64,000 nt of DNA, taken from contig CBDCCK010000002.1 in the NCBI GenBank assembly GCA_965214835.1, positions 2,880,001-2,944,000 of the forward strand, in the 5' to 3' direction. Under the pieces are notes generated by a model. It was not told the origin of the DNA, ran no database searches, and saw only the letters and a program-made list of their open reading frames with translations. The DNA is from Nitrosopumilaceae archaeon (lineage in GTDB: Archaea; Thermoproteota; Nitrososphaeria; Nitrososphaerales; Nitrosopumilaceae). Shown one piece after another: positions 12,330-48,595 of this stretch; position 1 is the stretch's first letter, and each line of letters opens with the position of its first letter. The translations under genes were made by a program, and so were the position numbers.

Positions 12330-13360
12330 TTCAATGATTCCAGTCAGAAGCTTCCCAACGTCCCGGCCCCGTCCCTCCTTGAGAGGTACAAAAATGAGAC
12401 CGACTCCAAGGCCGCAGCCAGGCTGATGGCCTACATACGGCGCAAAAAAGGCGACTCGATACGCCAGATAGCCAAGCAGCTCGGCCGGGGGTACTCTACG
12501 ATACGCGACTGGCTGATACGGGCCATGCAGCTTGGCATACAGGGCAGGTACGACATCAAGAGGCCCGGCACCAAGATGTGGCCGGATGCAGGGAATCTCA
12601 AGCAGGTACGCGCCGACCTGATTGCGGGCCCGCGCAGCTGCGGATTAGAGTCGGAGGTGTGGACCGCACCGCTGCTTGCGGTACACATCAAAAAGAAATA
12701 CAAGGCAGACTATGCCGTCTCCAGCGTATACAAGATACTGCACATGCCTGGGCTTTTCATGCAGAAAGCCCCCCGCCCAAAGCACCCAAAACCAGCCTCA
12801 GAATCCGAGAAAGAGGAGTTCAAAAAAAGCTAGGCGGCATGTAAGATATTACTCGAAGAGAGGGTACACGGTAATGATAGGGGACGAGGCCTCGTTCATC
12901 CTTGGGTGGAACGTCAAGAACAGCTGGTACCCCGTGGGAAGGCCCGGTCTTTGCGCCGTCCAACCTGTCAAAGGAGAGGTTCTATTCGATCGGGGCCCTG
13001 TCGGCAAACGGACTTGGCTGCCGCTTTTACAAAAAGGCCAAGTACACGTTCATCAGGTTTCTCAAGGTGCTGCGCCGCAAGTACGGCAAGGTGCTGCTGT
13101 TTGTCGACAACGCATCGTATCACAGGGCAGCACTGGTCAGGGAGCAGCTGGCAGAATGGAATGGTGATGTAGTGCCAAAGTTCCTGCCGCCGTACACGCC
13201 GGAGCTGAGCTCGATAGAGGGGCAGTGGCGCGGGGTCAAAAAGGCAACTGCAAGCCGCCTGTATCAGACCGTCGGCGAGATGCAAAAGTCCATACGCGTT
13301 ATGTTGCGCAGGGGCGAGATCAAGATCTGCCAGATGGGCGATTATCTTAGCTAGATACTA
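12330..13360 (+). mobile_element. IS630-family element, transposase frameshifted
   Basis: HTH segment 12426-12833 and DDE segment (GDEASF, FVDNASYH, LPPYTPELSSIE) to 13354. Ends approximate. Confidence 0.85.
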
Positions 13361-27044: not shown

Positions 27045-28193
27045 TTACGGTAGATGATTCTCTCTGGAAAGCATAGGTAGATCGGATTTGGCGGCATTCT
27101 GGATTATGGTCTTCCACTTGTTGTCTCCCTGAATCCTGATTCCGGCCCTGTCGGCAGGCGTGTCGCCGTCAAGGCCCTGATGCGGGCGGACGTAGTTGTG
27201 GTGGATCTGCATTCCCTTGAAAATTGCAGAGTCGTCTCTTTTGACCCCACGGACCACCTTTTCTCTGGCTCTTAACGTGTTGCCGTTGAATGACTCCATC
27301 TGGTTGTTGTTCATGTCGCCGGAGATGTGGATGTGCCTGTGGTGTTCCGTGTCCTTGTGGAGGAGGTTCTTGGGCCTGTACTGATCCTTCCACGCATGGT
27401 GAAAGTTGGCAGCCCCATCAGAGATCAGCGTCCTGGGAATTTTTCCGGCCTTATTTCTCGCATACCTGAACATCGGAGACACGTCATCGTTTCCTTTGTG
27501 TTCTGCCACCATCTGTGCAAGCCAGAACCGTGTCTCGGAATCCAGCATGGCAAAGAGATACTTGCGATCCCCCTTGATTTTCAGGTACAGTTCATCGGTT
27601 CTCCATACCTCCCCCACCTGCGGCGTGATTTTTTCTAGGTATTTGTCCATGAGTCTGACGTATTTCCTGTTCCAGTTTTGGATCGTTGTGTGGGTTACCA
27701 TAATACCTGTAAGTGCCAATGATTGGGCCACTTTTCTTGAGGATTCCCCGTTAAAGTATAGATTCATGGCAACCGTTATCTGGTCCGGAGTTGCCATCAT
27801 CCTTTCAAATCCGAGATTGACTGAGAACTTTCTCTTGCAGTCGTTGCACCTGAGCATCTGGATATCGTGCTGTTTGTTGTGCCGCACGCCCATCTTTACC
27901 AGCTTTGTGGAATTGCAGTACTTGCACGAATCAAGAGTGAGTTCCGAGATTACCACATCGTCCCTGACCTCCCGGTGAATCCTGATCGAAATTTCAACTG
28001 CATGAATGTGCTTGCAACACGTCCCTCTGAACCGGTGGTCCTCGCAGGAGCAGACCCAGCCACGTTCGGTAGAGACAACATCATGCATCTTGTTCCTTGA
28101 CTGGGATCTGACTGCATAACGGGAACCGTCAAGTCTGGTGATCTGGTCCGGGGTTTCCGCTATCTGTCTTCCTCTGATCTCTCGTGGATTCAT
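27045..28193 (-). CDS. IS6-like DDE transposase with N-terminal SWIM and zinc-ribbon domains
   Basis: CSCEDH...CKHIHAV SWIM; WRTDELY, ISDGA, NNNQMESFN, HHNYVRPHQGL. Confidence 0.85.
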   Translation of the reverse strand: MNPREIRGRQIAETPDQITRLDGSRYAVRSQSRNKMHDVVSTERGWVCSCEDHRFRGTCCKHIHAVEISIRIHREVRDDVVISELTLDSCKYCNSTKLVKMGVRHNKQHDIQMLRCNDCKRKFSVNLGFERMMATPDQITVAMNLYFNGESSRKVAQSLALTGIMVTHTTIQNWNRKYVRLMDKYLEKITPQVGEVWRTDELYLKIKGDRKYLFAMLDSETRFWLAQMVAEHKGNDDVSPMFRYARNKAGKIPRTLISDGAANFHHAWKDQYRPKNLLHKDTEHHRHIHISGDMNNNQMESFNGNTLRAREKVVRGVKRDDSAIFKGMQIHHNYVRPHQGLDGDTPADRAGIRIQGDNKWKTIIQNAAKSDLPMLSRENHLP

Positions 28194-28623: not shown

Positions 28624-28775
28624 AAGCGATGAGCCTGTTCAGCGGGGCAGGTGGCGGTAGTCAGCAAGGAGATGGGCAGGCGCTATCTCGGGTTTGAGAT
28701 CGCCAAGGAATACTTTGACTTTGCCAAGGAGCGCATAGAAAAGACAGGTGCGCAAGGTACCATTCAAAGAGGGAC
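28620..28775 (+). pseudogene. Chimeric DNA methyltransferase remnant (C5 N-terminus joined to N4/N6 C-terminus)
   Basis: TTG start gives MKAMSLFSGAGG; a shifted frame gives VVSKEMGRRYLGFEIAKEYFDFAKERIEK. Confidence 0.7.
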
Positions 28776-29205
28776 TACGCGGTAATGATAGGCGACGAGT
28801 CCTCGTTCATACTGGGATGGAACGTCAGGAACAGCTGGTACCCCGTAGGAAAGCCGGTCTGCACGCCATCCAGCCTGTCAGACCTATGTGCCTGACGTAA
28901 TTTTGCACAGGGACTCTGAGGTGGGAAAGCCGGTCTGCACGCCATCCAGCCTGTCAGGGAGGAGGTACTGTGCAATAGGGGCCCTCCCAAGGAGCGGGTT
29001 TGACTGCAGCTTTTACGAAAAGGCCGACACGGACACGTTCTTTGACTTTCTCAAGGCGCTGTGCCGCAAGTACGGCAGGGTGTGCTGCTGTTCGTGGACA
29101 ACGCGTCGTACCACAGGTCGGCGGAGCTCAGGAGAAGGATGGCCGGCTGGAAGGGAGACGTGGTGATAAGGCACCTGCCGCCGTACACGCCGGAGCTGAA
29201 CAACA
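28770..29205 (+). pseudogene. IS630 transposase fragment carrying a 37-bp duplication plus 39-bp insert
   Basis: Homologous to 12860-13210; repeat at 28845-28881 and 28921-28957. Confidence 0.85.
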
Positions 29206-29653
29206 CGTCGTGGTCCCCCGCAAGGGCGGCTGCTTGGGCTACCTCCTTCTGGTTGCGTGGGTTCTGTATCCCGAGATAGTACATCAGTGTGCTTGTATCA
29301 AATGATATCAACAGGTCTGTGTTCTTTACAGGCATTAGAAGCCAGCCCCTTCAAGGGTGGAATGTATGGAGAAATTCTTCTTAAGCACATGATATGTTTA
29401 GCTTCCATGGGCTATAAGGATAAACTCACATGCGGCACCTCCGGCGATGGCAACAACGATTCCGATCCATACGACGTTCTCCTTTGTTATCTGTACCATT
29501 TGAATCTGCAAATTCGTTTTGCATATAAACACGCAAATCGGTGGCGCGCGTGGGATCATGTCCCAGCGTGGAATGGAACCGTTGGTTATGGCGTGTTAAC
29601 TTCCATGTGAGTCAGAATAAACGTAGTACAGCTAGCCTTGATAGGAAAACATA

Positions 29654-33907: not shown

Positions 33908-35411
33908 TAGACTGTTGCATAACTCCGACTAGAGCCCAGCCAATCCTTCTGGATCACTACCGGTGCTCGGTTCCTACATGGCAGTCACCGCCTCTGCGAT
34001 CCACTTGTTGTACAGCCATATCCTCAGCTTTACCTCCTGCACTATGTTGGACCACTTGAGGGCCTTTACGTCCTCGCCGAACATGCGCTTTATGGCCGAT
34101 ATCACGATCTCGACGATCCATCTACTGCCAAAGCCGACCGTGCTCTTCCAGTACCGCAGGTTCTCCTGCCTCTCCTCCTTTGACAGGTTGCCCACCGGCA
34201 CCTCGGGGCCGCCCCCGAGCTGCCATCGCACCAGCCGGCCCCACTTGTCGCCGGCGCCCTTGCCCCTTGCAGTACAGCTTGTCAAAAGCCGTATGAGGGG
34301 CATTACGTCGTACTTGTAGCACTCGGCTACGTTCTTTCTAGAGCCGTATGCGCCGTCTGCAAGCAGGATCTTGCCAGGTGTAATCTGGTCCTCGCCGGTG
34401 CCGAGCATATCTAGCGGCGATCTCCCGTCTGCAAGCATGTTGGGGATCTTGATTGTATCCACGATGTCAGGGCAGTCCTGCTCCTCTTCCTTCTTGATGC
34501 TCTTGATTGTATCCACGATGTCAGGGCAGTCCTGCTCCTCTTCCTTCTTGATGCTCTTGATTGTATCCACGATGTCAGGGCAGTCCTGCTCCTCTTCCTT
34601 CTTGATGCTCTTGATTGTATCCACGATGTCAGGGCAGTCCTGCTCCTCTTCCTTCTTGATGCTCTTGATTGTATCCACGATGTCAGGGCAGTCCTGCTCC
34701 TCTTCCTTCTTGATGCTCTTGATTGTATCCACGATGTCAGGGCAGTCCTGCTCCTCTTCCTTCTTGATGCTCCTGGCCGCCTCCTCAAGCAGCGCAGGCA
34801 GCTCCGTGCTGTCGCCGACTGCCTCGCTTGTGACGGACACTGCCAGCACCTGCTTGGTGTCTGCGTCTACCATCAGGTGCATCTTGACGAACCCGCGCCT
34901 TACCTTCCATTTCTTGCGTATCCACTCGCCCCGGTTGTGCTGCTTGAGGCCCGTGGCATCGGCTATCATGACCAGGTTGTTGGACTTGTCGCGCACGGTA
35001 ATTATGTGCTCTGCAATGTCGACGTCAAGCTTCTGCATCCTCCTGAATATCGTGGTATAGCACGGCGAGTCCATACCCCTTAGCATTTCCCCGAACATGC
35101 CTGACAGCTGCCTGTACGGTATCATCAATGCGGTCCTGAGGGCGGCCGCGGCCATTATCATGCCTTCCGCGTACAGGAACGGGGCGCCCTCCTTGTGGCG
35201 GTTGGCATCCTTGAGATCCTTCTCCCAGCCGGGGTCGTGCTTGACGACCAGGCCGGCTCCCCTCTCTACGTACTTTGCGTTATCCGTGTGTGTCAACTGA
35301 TACCATACAAGGCATCCTCATGATCCATTACTTTTTCGGCCAAGTTTCGTTGATCATTATGGTGATTTTCGGTCAAGTTTCAGATTTTAGGCAGGGTTAT
35401 GCAACAGTCTA
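33908..35411 (-). mobile_element. IS5-family (IS903-like) element; open 440-aa transposase at 33974-35296
   Basis: TIR TAGACTGTTGCATAAC; 8-bp direct flank CTGCCTGA; ADATGLK...RGEW, LADGAY, RWIVE. Confidence 0.9.
34447..34772. repeat. Six perfect tandem copies of a 54-bp unit, in frame inside the transposase
   Basis: Encodes (SIKKEEEQDCPDIVDTIK)6. Confidence 0.97.
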
Positions 35412-35657: not shown

Positions 35658-37416
35658 GACCTTATGCGTAAACGACCGGATCGAAATATTCCGACGGTGG
35701 CCGACCACACATGCAAGGCTGACGGCATCACATGACGTGTATGAGCGCGGTAAAGTCCGCATGTCGTATATCTACGGATCATTACAGCTGGTAAAAACTA
35801 CAATGTCGTGCAGCATCGTGTGGCGCCGCAATGCGCTCCGTATCGTGATATCAGAACCCACGCGTGAGCTTCTTGTTCCGCTTGTCCCACAACAGCCTAA
35901 AGTTGGCAAGCCCGGCCGTCACCTGGAACTCCCTGTCGAACTCCTCGGCGGTCCCGTCGTACGGATCACGCATCCGCTTGTACTGCTTGATGCGCCCTAT
36001 GGTGTGCTCTACTGTCACCCTCTTGCTGCTTATCCTCCTGTTCTGCGCCTTCTGTTTCTTTGTAAGCTTGCCCCCCCTTGGCTTCTTGTTAGGTTGCATT
36101 GATATGACTCCCGGGTACAGATTCTTGATTCCCACGTATCCCAGGTCCGAGAGCAGTTTTACCTTCTCGTCCTCGGGGTGCTTTCTGTTGCTGCGCATCC
36201 TGGCAGTCAGGGCTCCCAGATCCGGGGGGTTGTTCTTTATCATGGTGAGATCGTGCGCGCTTCCGGGCGCCGACTCGCTTGCATGCATCGCCAGTCCCGT
36301 CTGGTCTGCAATCACCCGGGGTGTTGCGCGTAAAGTCCTTCTTCTTGCCCGAGTACGCCCCCCTTTCTTGGCTCCTTGTCCGAGGGGCGCTGTATTTTGA
36401 TGTGCGTGCCGTCTACCATTATGGTCAGATCCGGGACGATCTTCTTGACCTCCTTGATCGTACGGGCGTTTCGTATCTTCTGAGATATGGTGTCCGGCGT
36501 GGGCAGTATCTTGAGAAATATCATGTCGCAATACTTGAGGTACCTGCATACCGTACTCTGGTCTATGCCAAAGAACGCCGCAAGCTGCTCCTGCGTCGGG
36601 TTTCCGTACTTGCGCATCAGCGACATCAGCAGGGCGTGACGGTAGGACAGCTTGCACCGGTTTCCGGGCCCGTCGTCCTCGTCCTCTGAAAACAGGGGTG
36701 CCCTCCGTATGCTCTTTGGCAAGCTCCGTAAACCGGTCGGATATATGGTCAAACTGGCGGCGGTCCATCGACGTGGTGGACTGCAGGGATTCGCCGCCGA
36801 TTATGTCCTCGAGCACCTCGAGCCTGTGCATGAAGGCGGCATTGTTTACGGTACGCCTGTCGTCATCCCAGGTTGCGGGCCACATCCGGCGCTCGGTGTC
36901 CAGCCGCTGCTCCAGCTGCCCTATCCTCTCCTGATCCTTCTCGTGCCTCCTGTCGTCCTGCCTGCTCTTTCTTTCGTACTCTCTGATCTTCTTTCTGTAC
37001 TGCATCCTCTCCTTCCTGCCCCGCGCCTTCTCCTTCTTGTCCTTCCTGATCCTTCTCGTGCCTCTTGATCCTCTTCTCGTACTTCTTGATCTTCTTTTTG
37101 TCCCGCGCCTTCTCCTTCCTGTCCTGCTTAGTCCTCTTCTCGTACTCTCTGATCTTCTTTTTGTCCCGCGCCTTCTCCTTCCTGTCCTGCTCGATCCTCT
37201 TCCTCAGCCGTTGTATCAGCTCGTCCTTGTACTCTGACATCACCCTTGTGTGGGAATGGATCCCGGATCTAAATCAACCGGATGAAAATACTTGCAGGTT
37301 TGATCAAATATTTTCAACGTAATGAGGTACAGTCACGCGTGCGCTGGCCCTGACTCGCCCCATTTGTAGCCCGTGCGCCGGGGGCATCGCCGCTAATTTC
37401 GTTTACGCATAAGGTC
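35658..37416 (-). mobile_element. IS5-family (ISL2-like) full-length element, transposase frameshifted
   Basis: TIR GACCTTATGCGTAAACGA at both ends; long K/E/R-rich repetitive N-terminus followed by HTH and DDE_Tnp_4 motifs. Confidence 0.9.
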
Positions 37417-47460: not shown

Positions 47461-48595
47461 TGTGTATTGTACGAAAATTAAGTCGCACTAATTTGAGGAG
47501 GGTTGCAAAGGATTGCTTTAGGCTTTACCGATCAAGAAAACCGATGGTTGCAAGGCCCAGCGCACGACAGATCAGATACGCAGTAACGCAGTGTGCTAGG
47601 GGACGAAGGCCTTCGGAGATGGCCCAAGAGATAGGCGTCACAAAAAGGCATGTCCAGCGGATGTACGCCCAATTCAAGAAGACAGGAGGTACACACCATG
47701 TGCCTCTCAAGCCGGGAAGAAAAAGGAGTGCACCGGTTCCCGACGGGAGATTCATGGCTGGCCAGTGATGAAAGATGTCCTCACAGCCGGGAAGAAAAAG
47801 GAGCGCATCGGTTCCCGACGGGGCCGTGCGCGCCGTCTTGGAGGAGCACAAGCACAGTGCAGCAGGCGTGGTTCATACGGCCAGGAGGCTGCGAAGGCAA
47901 CACGATATAATCTATTACGAGGTATACAGGATAACGAGGGGGCACGGGCTGGTGACGCCGTCGCCTGCAAAGTCACAACCTAGAAAATACGTCCGCTTTG
48001 AGCGCAAGTACTCCAACGCCATGTGGCATGTGGACTGGCACGCCATGAAGGATCCGCGCTTTGCGGGACTCAACCTAGTCACGTTCCTGGACGACTCGTC
48101 TAGGTGCGTGACCGGTGCGGGCCTGTTCAAGGAGGCCACCTCGGAGAACGTCGTGGTGGTTCTGCGGCAGGCCACAGCCCAGTTCGGCGCGCCTGCCACA
48201 ATCCTCTCAGACAACGGCAAGTGCTTTGTAGGGGCGCGCTCGAGCTCGAAGAAGAGCCCGCCCAAAGGCGGGTGGAGGCCCACTGCATTTGAGGAGGAGC
48301 TACTCGACTGCGGAATCGAGATGATAAACTCCAAGCCGTATCACCCGCAGACCAACGGCAAGCTGGAGCTCTTCCACCGGAGCATCGAGGAGGAGATGTG
48401 GAACCACGAGAGCCTGTCTGCATATATCGGCTACTATAATGATGACAGGCTGCACTGGTCGCTGGATATAGACAACTATGAGACGCCGCTGCGGGCATTC
48501 TGTGACAGAAAGGCCACAGAAGCGATCAGGAAAAGCAACCCAAAACGGATGGAGGATGCCGGTGATGGTGCGACATAATTTTCGTATAATACAAA
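47461..48595 (+). mobile_element. IS481-family element; transposase disrupted by a 38-bp duplication plus 37-bp insert
   Basis: About 29-bp TIR TGTGTATTGTACGAAAATTAAGTCGCAC; WHVDWH, DDSSR, SDNG, PQTNGKLE. Confidence 0.88.

Follow-up and report, generated by a model that had tools for sequence, protein, structure and literature searches.

What placed a spacer-sized piece of DNA between two copies of a short segment of a transposase gene? The question is raised by positions 28845-28957 of a 64,000-nucleotide (nt) stretch of a Nitrosopumilaceae archaeon genome (the window; contig C2, positions 2880001-2944000, of a 3.22-Mb genome in two contigs, G000), where a fragment of an IS630-family insertion sequence (IS) carries a direct repeat that flanks an unrelated insert. 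We consider it very probable that this unit is an off-target spacer integration made by the archaeon's own type I-G CRISPR adaptation complex, a Cas4/Cas1 fusion acting with Cas2. The observations behind this reading are the geometry of the unit and its agreement with the resident CRISPR array, the presence of the enzyme genes, the protospacer-adjacent motif (PAM) at the sources of sister inserts, the empty paralogous sites and the recurrence of such units in a relative (G066). Positions without a contig name refer to the window.

A spacer-sized insertion with target duplication in an IS630 gene

A repeat search of the window identified two copies of a 37-nt sequence on the + strand, at 28845-28881 and 28921-28957, that are identical at 36/37 positions and differ (A/G) at the third base. 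The copies lie 76 nt apart start-to-start and enclose a 39-nt insert (28882-28920), the whole structure measuring 113 nt. The 34-nt exact core of the repeat occurs twice in the window and the insert once, and 100 dinucleotide shuffles gave 0 matches. An earlier note, made from the letters of this DNA, had described the duplication around the insert and had pointed to a homologous IS630 copy near 12934 with one target and no insert; both descriptions were confirmed. The empty, unduplicated target of that copy lies at approximately 12934-12971 (+ strand), and in a MAFFT alignment 7/7 paralogous chromosomal IS630 copies likewise have a single, insert-free target, showing that the unit arose by a 76-nt insertion with target duplication and not by a deletion. 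No orthologous locus was found in 30 relatives, so the polarity of the insertion rests on these paralogs.

The gene fragment that received the insertion spans 28727-29207 (+ strand), judged by the extent of its homology to the paralogs; it is truncated at both ends and gives a DDE_3 match at 29061-29279. It is the target of the integration and not a component of the mechanism. Because the duplication mode genome-wide is 36 nt (see below), the unit is best read as a 36-nt duplication around a 40-nt spacer, with one boundary base ambiguous, and one substitution has occurred since insertion. The insert is single-copy in its own genome (blastn-short), the duplication is 36-37 nt long and no inverted repeat was reported at the ends, all of which sets the unit apart from an IS or a miniature inverted-repeat transposable element (MITE) and disposes of the concern that the insert might be a MITE remnant. 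Nor is it a tandem duplication or minisatellite, the insert being unrelated to the flanks and absent from the paralogs, or a bona fide CRISPR array, there being two copies, one spacer and a target unlike the CRISPR repeat. A source for the insert was found neither in a phage collection (blastn, E up to 1), nor in viral or metagenome contigs (exact 27-mers), nor in 300 genomes of the family at up to 3 mismatches, plasmids not being searched; a foreign origin is presumed.

In favour of an assembly or sequencing artefact, assemblers are sometimes misled by short repeats, and Logan contigs do break at the 34-nt exact repeat. Logan unitigs from two runs of one study (X1 and X3, study P1) and one run of another (X2 of study P2, from which the assembly may derive) nevertheless contain a 102-nt piece that equals 28852-28953 with 0 differences, running from the first repeat through the insert and into the second. 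This evidence takes the form of assembled unitigs and contigs. As an artefact would also have to account for the PAM-flanked sources common to the approximately 44 sister units described below, we regard this explanation as having a negligible chance of being correct.

Ectopic units share the dimensions of the resident type I-G array

The whole genome was scanned for direct repeats by extending exact 14-mer matches without gaps at offsets of 20-400 nt, and isolated pairs at least 28 nt long were retained. Among the 74 such pairs, 45 have a period of 71-76 nt, while no other 6-nt band holds more than 7, and the modal duplication length is 36 nt. Removal from 53 isolated events of period 68-79 of three identical paralogous copies and of C2:2692095, a reverse-complement copy of C2:1308253 (50 remaining), and of five events with periods outside 71-76 gave, after re-extension, 44 distinct units of period 71-76, with a duplication of 35-39 nt in 36/44. 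Their inserts measure 33-41 nt, and the approximately 44 inserts are all different. Four further units are amplified forms (see below), bringing the total to ~48 fixed events, or about 15 per Mb. The two copies of the duplication show 0 mismatches in 39/50 units of period 68-79, indicating that most units are recent. A second unit falls within the window itself (47710-47822), with a 38-nt duplication (2 mismatches), a 37-nt spacer and a period of 75; it lies between the helix-turn-helix and rve core regions of an IS481/IS3-like (rve-type) transposase gene.

The same dimensions characterize the archaeon's own CRISPR system. The main array (C2:2482178-2492955) comprises 148 identical 36-nt repeats, with periods of 71 (7 cases), 72 (45), 73 (54), 74 (18), 75 (16) and 76 (4) and three outliers, and 145/147 of its spacers are 35-41 nt long. 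The median period is 73 for the ectopic units and for the array, and the two distributions show no difference (Mann-Whitney p=0.70); thus, the duplication and insert lengths of the ectopic units equal the repeat and spacer lengths of the resident type I-G system. Periods divisible by three account for 26/44 units compared with 61/144 array periods, a difference that is suggestive only (Fisher p=0.059).

The adaptation module is present in the same genome. Directly upstream of the main array lie cas2 (32.1 bits against a cut-off of 24.5) and a 566-amino acid (aa) open frame encoding a Cas4g/Cas1g fusion (754.8 bits against NF049935), which is the only Cas1 match in the genome. Downstream of the array follow an IS630 element and then cas3g, cas8g2 (a weak match), cas7g and csb2. 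Within C2:2464001-2483000, cas4/1-cas2 and the array come directly after rps8-rpl6, the adaptation genes being on the same strand as rpl6 and ~620 bp behind it, and the ribosomal-protein genes ahead of cas4/1 encode S3, L24, S4e, L5, S8 and L6. In archaeal operon order, L19e normally comes shortly after L6; here it is found at C2:320491-320646, ~2.2 Mb from cas4/1. The spc ribosomal-protein operon looks broken here, with the adaptation genes at its end, and these may be expressed by read-through from it. A scan for sigma-70-type promoters upstream of cas4/1 was uninformative for an archaeon.

The presence of this single enzyme bears on the idea that the unit at 28845 is the footprint of some other integrase or transposase, which left a long duplication around a short remnant after a staggered cut of ~36-37 bp; a casposase or a recombinase of unknown kind would be examples, and the earlier note had raised an unknown integrase as its alternative. 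A long duplication does flank a short insert at 28845, and the genome is full of IS elements, 116/300 random pieces being multi-copy. However, the sole Cas1-family gene is the Cas4/Cas1 fusion beside the array, the insert lengths follow those of the array spacers, and the approximately 44 inserts all differ, 11 of them copying ordinary chromosomal sequence with a type I-G PAM. It also counts against this idea that casposon duplications measure ~14-15 bp and that IS630 elements duplicate TA. Another integrase is therefore very unlikely, and an enzyme with a ~37-bp stagger is not needed to explain the unit.

Two further observations concern CRISPR sequences in this genome. A degenerate array of 8 repeats, with 2-5 mismatches against the main repeat, lies on the opposite strand at C2:135821-136368, beside a C-terminal fragment of Cas3g; it is probably what is left of a second type I-G locus. 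One spacer of the main array, the only one of 147 with a long match in the assembly (blastn-short), matches C1:6366-6401 on the 13-kb second contig at 36/37 positions, with the mismatch at spacer position 1 and TT then C upstream; the PAM motif of this target is on the side facing the leader-proximal repeat. At least 14 chromosomal sites have a ~1.7-kb IS in common with contig C1, which may be a plasmid or virus escaping through this seed mismatch.

Sources of sister inserts carry a PAM, and several cluster beside an oriC-like locus

All spacers were compared with the genome using blastn-short. In contrast to the array, with its single long match, many ectopic spacers have full-length chromosomal matches. 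From 17 self-match candidates, two whole-unit paralogous copies were removed (1736693 and 1973493) and four imperfect or partial matches were set aside (2814926, 204691, 2227481 and 1652870), leaving 11 protospacers matched over their full length at 96.5% identity or more. TTC or TTG stands directly 5' of the protospacer on one strand in 7/11 cases (chance 0.064, p=1.1e-6), and TT[C/G] occurs within offsets -2 to +1 in all 11/11 (chance 0.24, p=1.6e-7). To judge from these sequences, the ectopic inserts are genuine captured prespacers. The earlier note had proposed that a PAM should be sought at the source, and for the class of units as a whole the PAM-flanked sources exclude an origin by slippage, from filler DNA or from pieces of one mobile element. 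An attempt to orient the units by the terminal-base bias of array spacers yielded a bias too weak for use.

These data bear on an origin by slippage during replication, by a template switch or by the repair of a break with filler DNA, any of which would have duplicated the site locally and captured a fragment with no dedicated enzyme taking part. Direct repeats do recombine in this genome, four ectopic units and two units inside arrays having been amplified with identical spacers. Such processes would give no fixed length, yet 45/74 isolated pairs fall within the 6-nt band of the CRISPR period; they would not select sources flanked by TT[C/G], and the insert at 28882-28920 has no similarity to its flanks. 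We give this explanation very little weight for the unit at 28845.

About one-third of the captured fragments match the archaeon's own chromosome (15/44 units including imperfect matches, of which 11 are near-perfect). Four of the 11 self-sources lie at C2:900193-906409 (p=2.4e-6, corrected for the number of windows), within 6.3 kb of a locus resembling an origin of replication (oriC-like; C2:899000-902800), at which this stretch begins. In the locus a 33%-GC kilobase is flanked by genes for PolD DP2, Orc1/Cdc6 and PolD DP1, and the cumulative GC-skew maximum, at 0.88 Mb, is near. The spacer of the unit at 47710-47822 matches C2:2467574-2467610 at 36/37 positions, in the ribosomal-protein region ~13 kb upstream of cas4/1.

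Target choice and fate of the ectopic units

Between the duplicated targets and the CRISPR repeat there is no resemblance: in the better orientation they share ~9-10/36 identities, which equals chance. An impression gained from a few cases, that targets mimic the end of the repeat (TTGAxGC), was dropped for lack of any similarity. At the flanks, T is found at position -2 in 0/64 junctions, and positions -2 to +1 are often G/C; G+C makes up 68% of the 10 nt surrounding the two nick sites compared with 52.5% at random sites (p=3e-8), and 57.7% of the duplicated targets themselves compared with 52.4%. Target choice is thus almost sequence-independent, with only a weak G/C preference seen around the two nick sites.

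Units are found in multi-copy DNA, defined by one or more further copies measuring at least 150 nt, in 30/44 cases compared with 116/300 random 336-nt pieces of this very repeat-rich genome (p=7e-5), and they are somewhat rarer in long open frames (27/44, compared with 79% of random positions). This excess in repeated DNA and deficit in open frames looks like the survival of insertions in dispensable DNA. Some units lie in IS copies that multiplied afterwards. In-frame units are present in host genes for a family-2 glycosyltransferase, a PMT/LamG protein, a sulfotransferase, an NAD-dependent epimerase and a DNA methylase, those in the host glycosylation genes adding 24-25 codons, and other units lie in rve-type and IS630-type transposase genes. 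The suggestion in the earlier note that such integrations inactivate mobile genes therefore holds only in so far as IS630-type and rve-type transposase genes are among the targets; host genes are also hit, and a targeting of mobile genes is unsupported. The local IS630 fragment is truncated at both ends, so that the insertion may have come before or after the truncation and may or may not be what inactivated the gene. Within 150 kb of the cas locus there are 11/44 units where 4.1 would be expected (p=0.002); because this region is opposite the oriC-like locus, near the GC-skew minimum at 2.34 Mb, the two effects are inseparable and no conclusion is drawn.

Four units have the form repeat-spacer-repeat-spacer-repeat with identical spacers (C2:1927769, 2513205, 2610439 and 2832639), as do two inside arrays (C2:135966 and 2489774). 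Their span is approximately two periods plus 36 nt (within 8 nt), which indicates recombination or slippage between the 36-nt duplications and implies that ectopic units can also be lost precisely. Two pairs with periods of 148 and 142 had been candidates for multi-spacer chains, and their spacers proved to be identical. No chain of different spacers was present at any ectopic site in the genome-wide scan.

Off-target integration has been proposed as an origin of new CRISPR loci (Nivala et al. 2018, via PMC6698737 and bioRxiv 10.1101/148544, as far as these partial sources go), and a unit such as that at 28845 might accordingly be a working or nascent mini-CRISPR, or 'neo-array', that is transcribed, processed and used in defence, for example against IS630 or against the source of the insert. 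We consider this highly improbable. The I-G Cas6-like subunit would recognise the CRISPR repeat, to which the duplicated sequence bears no relation; no ectopic site holds a second, different spacer (the four three-copy units having identical ones); and in many units the spacer is self-derived and PAM-flanked, so that its use would amount to autoimmunity. Having no CRISPR repeat, the unit at 28845 is presumably not processed into CRISPR RNA and hence immunologically silent, and this silence would explain the tolerance of self-derived, PAM-flanked spacers in the sister units.

Recurrence in relatives

Cas1 was present in 18/60 genomes of the family that were sampled, and the closest Cas4/1 loci, with 60-72% identity, belong to Nitrosopumilus, Nitrosopumilaceae, Cenarchaeum and Thaumarchaeota metagenome-assembled genomes. 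A relative from another genus with 70.6% G+C (G066) has its own array, in which the repeat is 36 nt long and the commonest period 71. In the 386 kb around its cas4/1, 5/13 isolated pairs have periods of 70-72, and three of these (G066:C1:2788178, 3036054 and 3097447) show duplications of 36, 36 and 38 nt with periods of 71, 70 and 71. In a genome of the same genus as the archaeon studied here (G004), the Cas4/1 fusion and an array with a related repeat and periods of 72-74 are present, and cas4/1 follows a helicase gene, not ribosomal-protein genes. The ectopic period tracks each genome's own array, and the phenomenon recurs without being universal. As an observation apart, the region G066:C1:2796131-3159912 holds at least 528 copies of the 36-nt type I-G repeat within the 386 kb.

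Probable off-target integration by the Cas4/1-Cas2 complex

In the mechanism that we favour, whose steps follow published Cas1-Cas2 biochemistry, the Cas4/1-Cas2 complex would be loaded with a processed prespacer of ~36-40 nt and would attack ordinary chromosomal DNA twice by transesterification, once on each strand, at sites set 36 bp apart by the complex itself. With the attack sites at this distance, gap repair would duplicate 36 bp of target on both sides of the inserted fragment. A natural ectopic spacer integration of this kind was the first suggestion of the earlier note. It is now supported by the genome-wide clustering of sizes, their match to the repeat and spacer of the array, the single cas1 and the cas2 in the genome, the PAM-flanked sources of sister inserts and the unitigs from three runs and two studies.

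Several observations weigh against off-target integration as the origin of the unit at 28845. No protospacer for its insert was found in any collection searched, so that its assignment depends on the sister events. With a period of 76 the unit falls in the tail of both distributions (4/147 in the array, 2/44 among ectopic units), and its two copies differ at one base, which leaves the length of the duplication (34, 36 or 37 nt) uncertain. For the class as a whole, the four imperfect or partial self-matches that were set aside lack a directly adjacent TT[C/G], and counting them lowers strict adjacency to 7/15; in addition, the duplicated targets are unlike the CRISPR repeat. Finally, in the 400 kb around cas4/1 of G004, 0/3 isolated pairs have a period of 68-79, and since this genome has the enzyme, the enzyme alone does not guarantee the phenomenon.

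Why units should be so numerous in this genome may have two answers that fit the data: relaxed selection in an IS-laden genome would let insertions persist, and cas4/1-cas2 expression may be raised behind the ribosomal-protein operon. Taken jointly, the observations allow a broader and more tentative picture, which we hold to be possible but would not yet favour. Here, Cas4/1-Cas2 would be a genome-wide, leader-independent and nearly sequence-independent inserter and a real mutational force (~15 fixed events per Mb, with in-frame host-gene insertions and units later amplified or lost), the silent units would form an unselected archive of naive adaptation that records self-sampling on the side of oriC and strict PAM choice, and the driver might be over-expression of cas4/1-cas2.

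Neighbouring genes and other repeats

The neighbourhood of the unit at 28845 is IS debris; it includes an IS6/IS240-type transposase gene (27045-28193, - strand) and a C-terminal fragment of a DNA methylase gene (28651-28785). Elsewhere in the window there are a 54-nt tandem repeat (34386-34817, seven overlapping 108-nt copies) and a CT-rich cluster with a 21-nt period (36929-37219), and repeats with an 84-nt period that are similar to these two occur at many chromosomal sites. A dense cluster of a ~24-nt palindromic motif, irregularly spaced at 64-73 nt and longer, occupies C2:34400-36100 and is followed by a tandem repeat alternating between 39 and 45 nt. Directly after the I-G effector genes, C2:2500864-2504001 (- strand) encodes a 1045-aa protein with a UvrD/PcrA-like helicase and a C-terminal Cas4/AddB-like nuclease domain.

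Significance and relation to known systems

Off-target integration is regarded as a concealed burden of CRISPR adaptation and as one way in which new arrays might begin, and natural evidence for it is thin in the literature searched; the present genome and at least one relative offer dozens of fixed natural events. They indicate that the 36-bp 'ruler' of the integrase works without the repeat sequence and that the enzyme has an intrinsic, weak G/C target preference. They also indicate that where interference cannot purge self-targeting spacers, self fragments are captured with correct PAMs, the DNA beside the replication origin being a hotspot. Self/non-self discrimination in naive adaptation, the autoimmune and mutagenic load of Cas1-Cas2, and the question of whether ectopic units seed arrays thereby become testable in an uncultivated archaeal group. 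For annotation, a simple signature would be an isolated direct repeat that is as long as the host's CRISPR repeat and has its copies one host spacer apart, and this signature explains puzzling 72-76-nt gene insertions.

Casposons are kilobase-sized elements with terminal inverted repeats that generate duplications of ~14-15 bp. Their integration resembles what is described here in using a Cas1-family integrase, a staggered attack and a target-site duplication, but the present inserts are 33-41 nt long and there is no second Cas1 gene.

Closer to the present case is canonical type I-G adaptation. In Geobacter sulfurreducens, the type I-G (I-U) Cas4/1-Cas2 uses the PAM TTN upstream of the protospacer and a main spacer length of 36 bp (PMC6547450, in the part available), and the archaeon shares the gene module (NF049935), a PAM that conforms to TTN and spacers of ~36 bp. 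The one array spacer with a target in the assembly has its PAM-proximal end beside the leader-proximal repeat, in keeping with the directional I-G Cas4/1 model (PMC10504553). Canonical I-G integration takes place at the leader-repeat junction, whereas here the same geometry is found at sites without leader-like or repeat-like sequence. According to the accessible portion of PMC10504553, the in vitro site fidelity of Methanosarcina barkeri I-G is imperfect, correct placement reaching 80-90% at the leader side and 60-70% at the spacer side. Ectopic acquisition at non-leader positions inside arrays is described for Streptococcus thermophilus and S. mutans (PMC7999890, PMC5338259 and PMC8265633, in excerpt); those type II-A events used an internal, bona fide array repeat, whereas ordinary genomic DNA was used here.

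The nearest parallel is the off-target spacer integration by Cas1-Cas2 shown in E. coli (Nivala, Shipman & Church 2018; via PMC7054753, PMC6698737, PMC9456107 and bioRxiv 10.1101/148544, each a partial account). In both cases an adaptation integrase puts a spacer-sized fragment outside the array, and here the duplication has the length of the repeat. The E. coli work concerned a type I-E system in a bacterium with overproduced Cas1-Cas2 and fed oligonucleotides, whereas here ~48 fixed events are present in a natural archaeal genome with a type I-G fusion. Non-canonical integration in E. coli is favoured near motifs resembling those of integration host factor (PMC9456107, as excerpted), while only the G/C enrichment at nick sites is seen here. 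Unlike the E. coli events in those accounts, the present units hold PAM-selected, partly self-derived spacers, and none has grown into an array. Natural evidence was called 'circumstantial ... in two other species' in the portion of bioRxiv 10.1101/148544 available, and a search that left most subscription journals and the supplements uncovered turned up neither a natural genome reported to hold units in such numbers nor any account of the phenomenon in archaea or in type I-G systems, so that a prior report is possible. What is known from E. coli, then, is the off-target mechanism of Cas1-Cas2; what appears to be new is its natural setting, in a type I-G system and an archaeal host with dozens of events, and with it the PAM-selected, partly self-derived spacers and the nearly sequence-independent choice of target.

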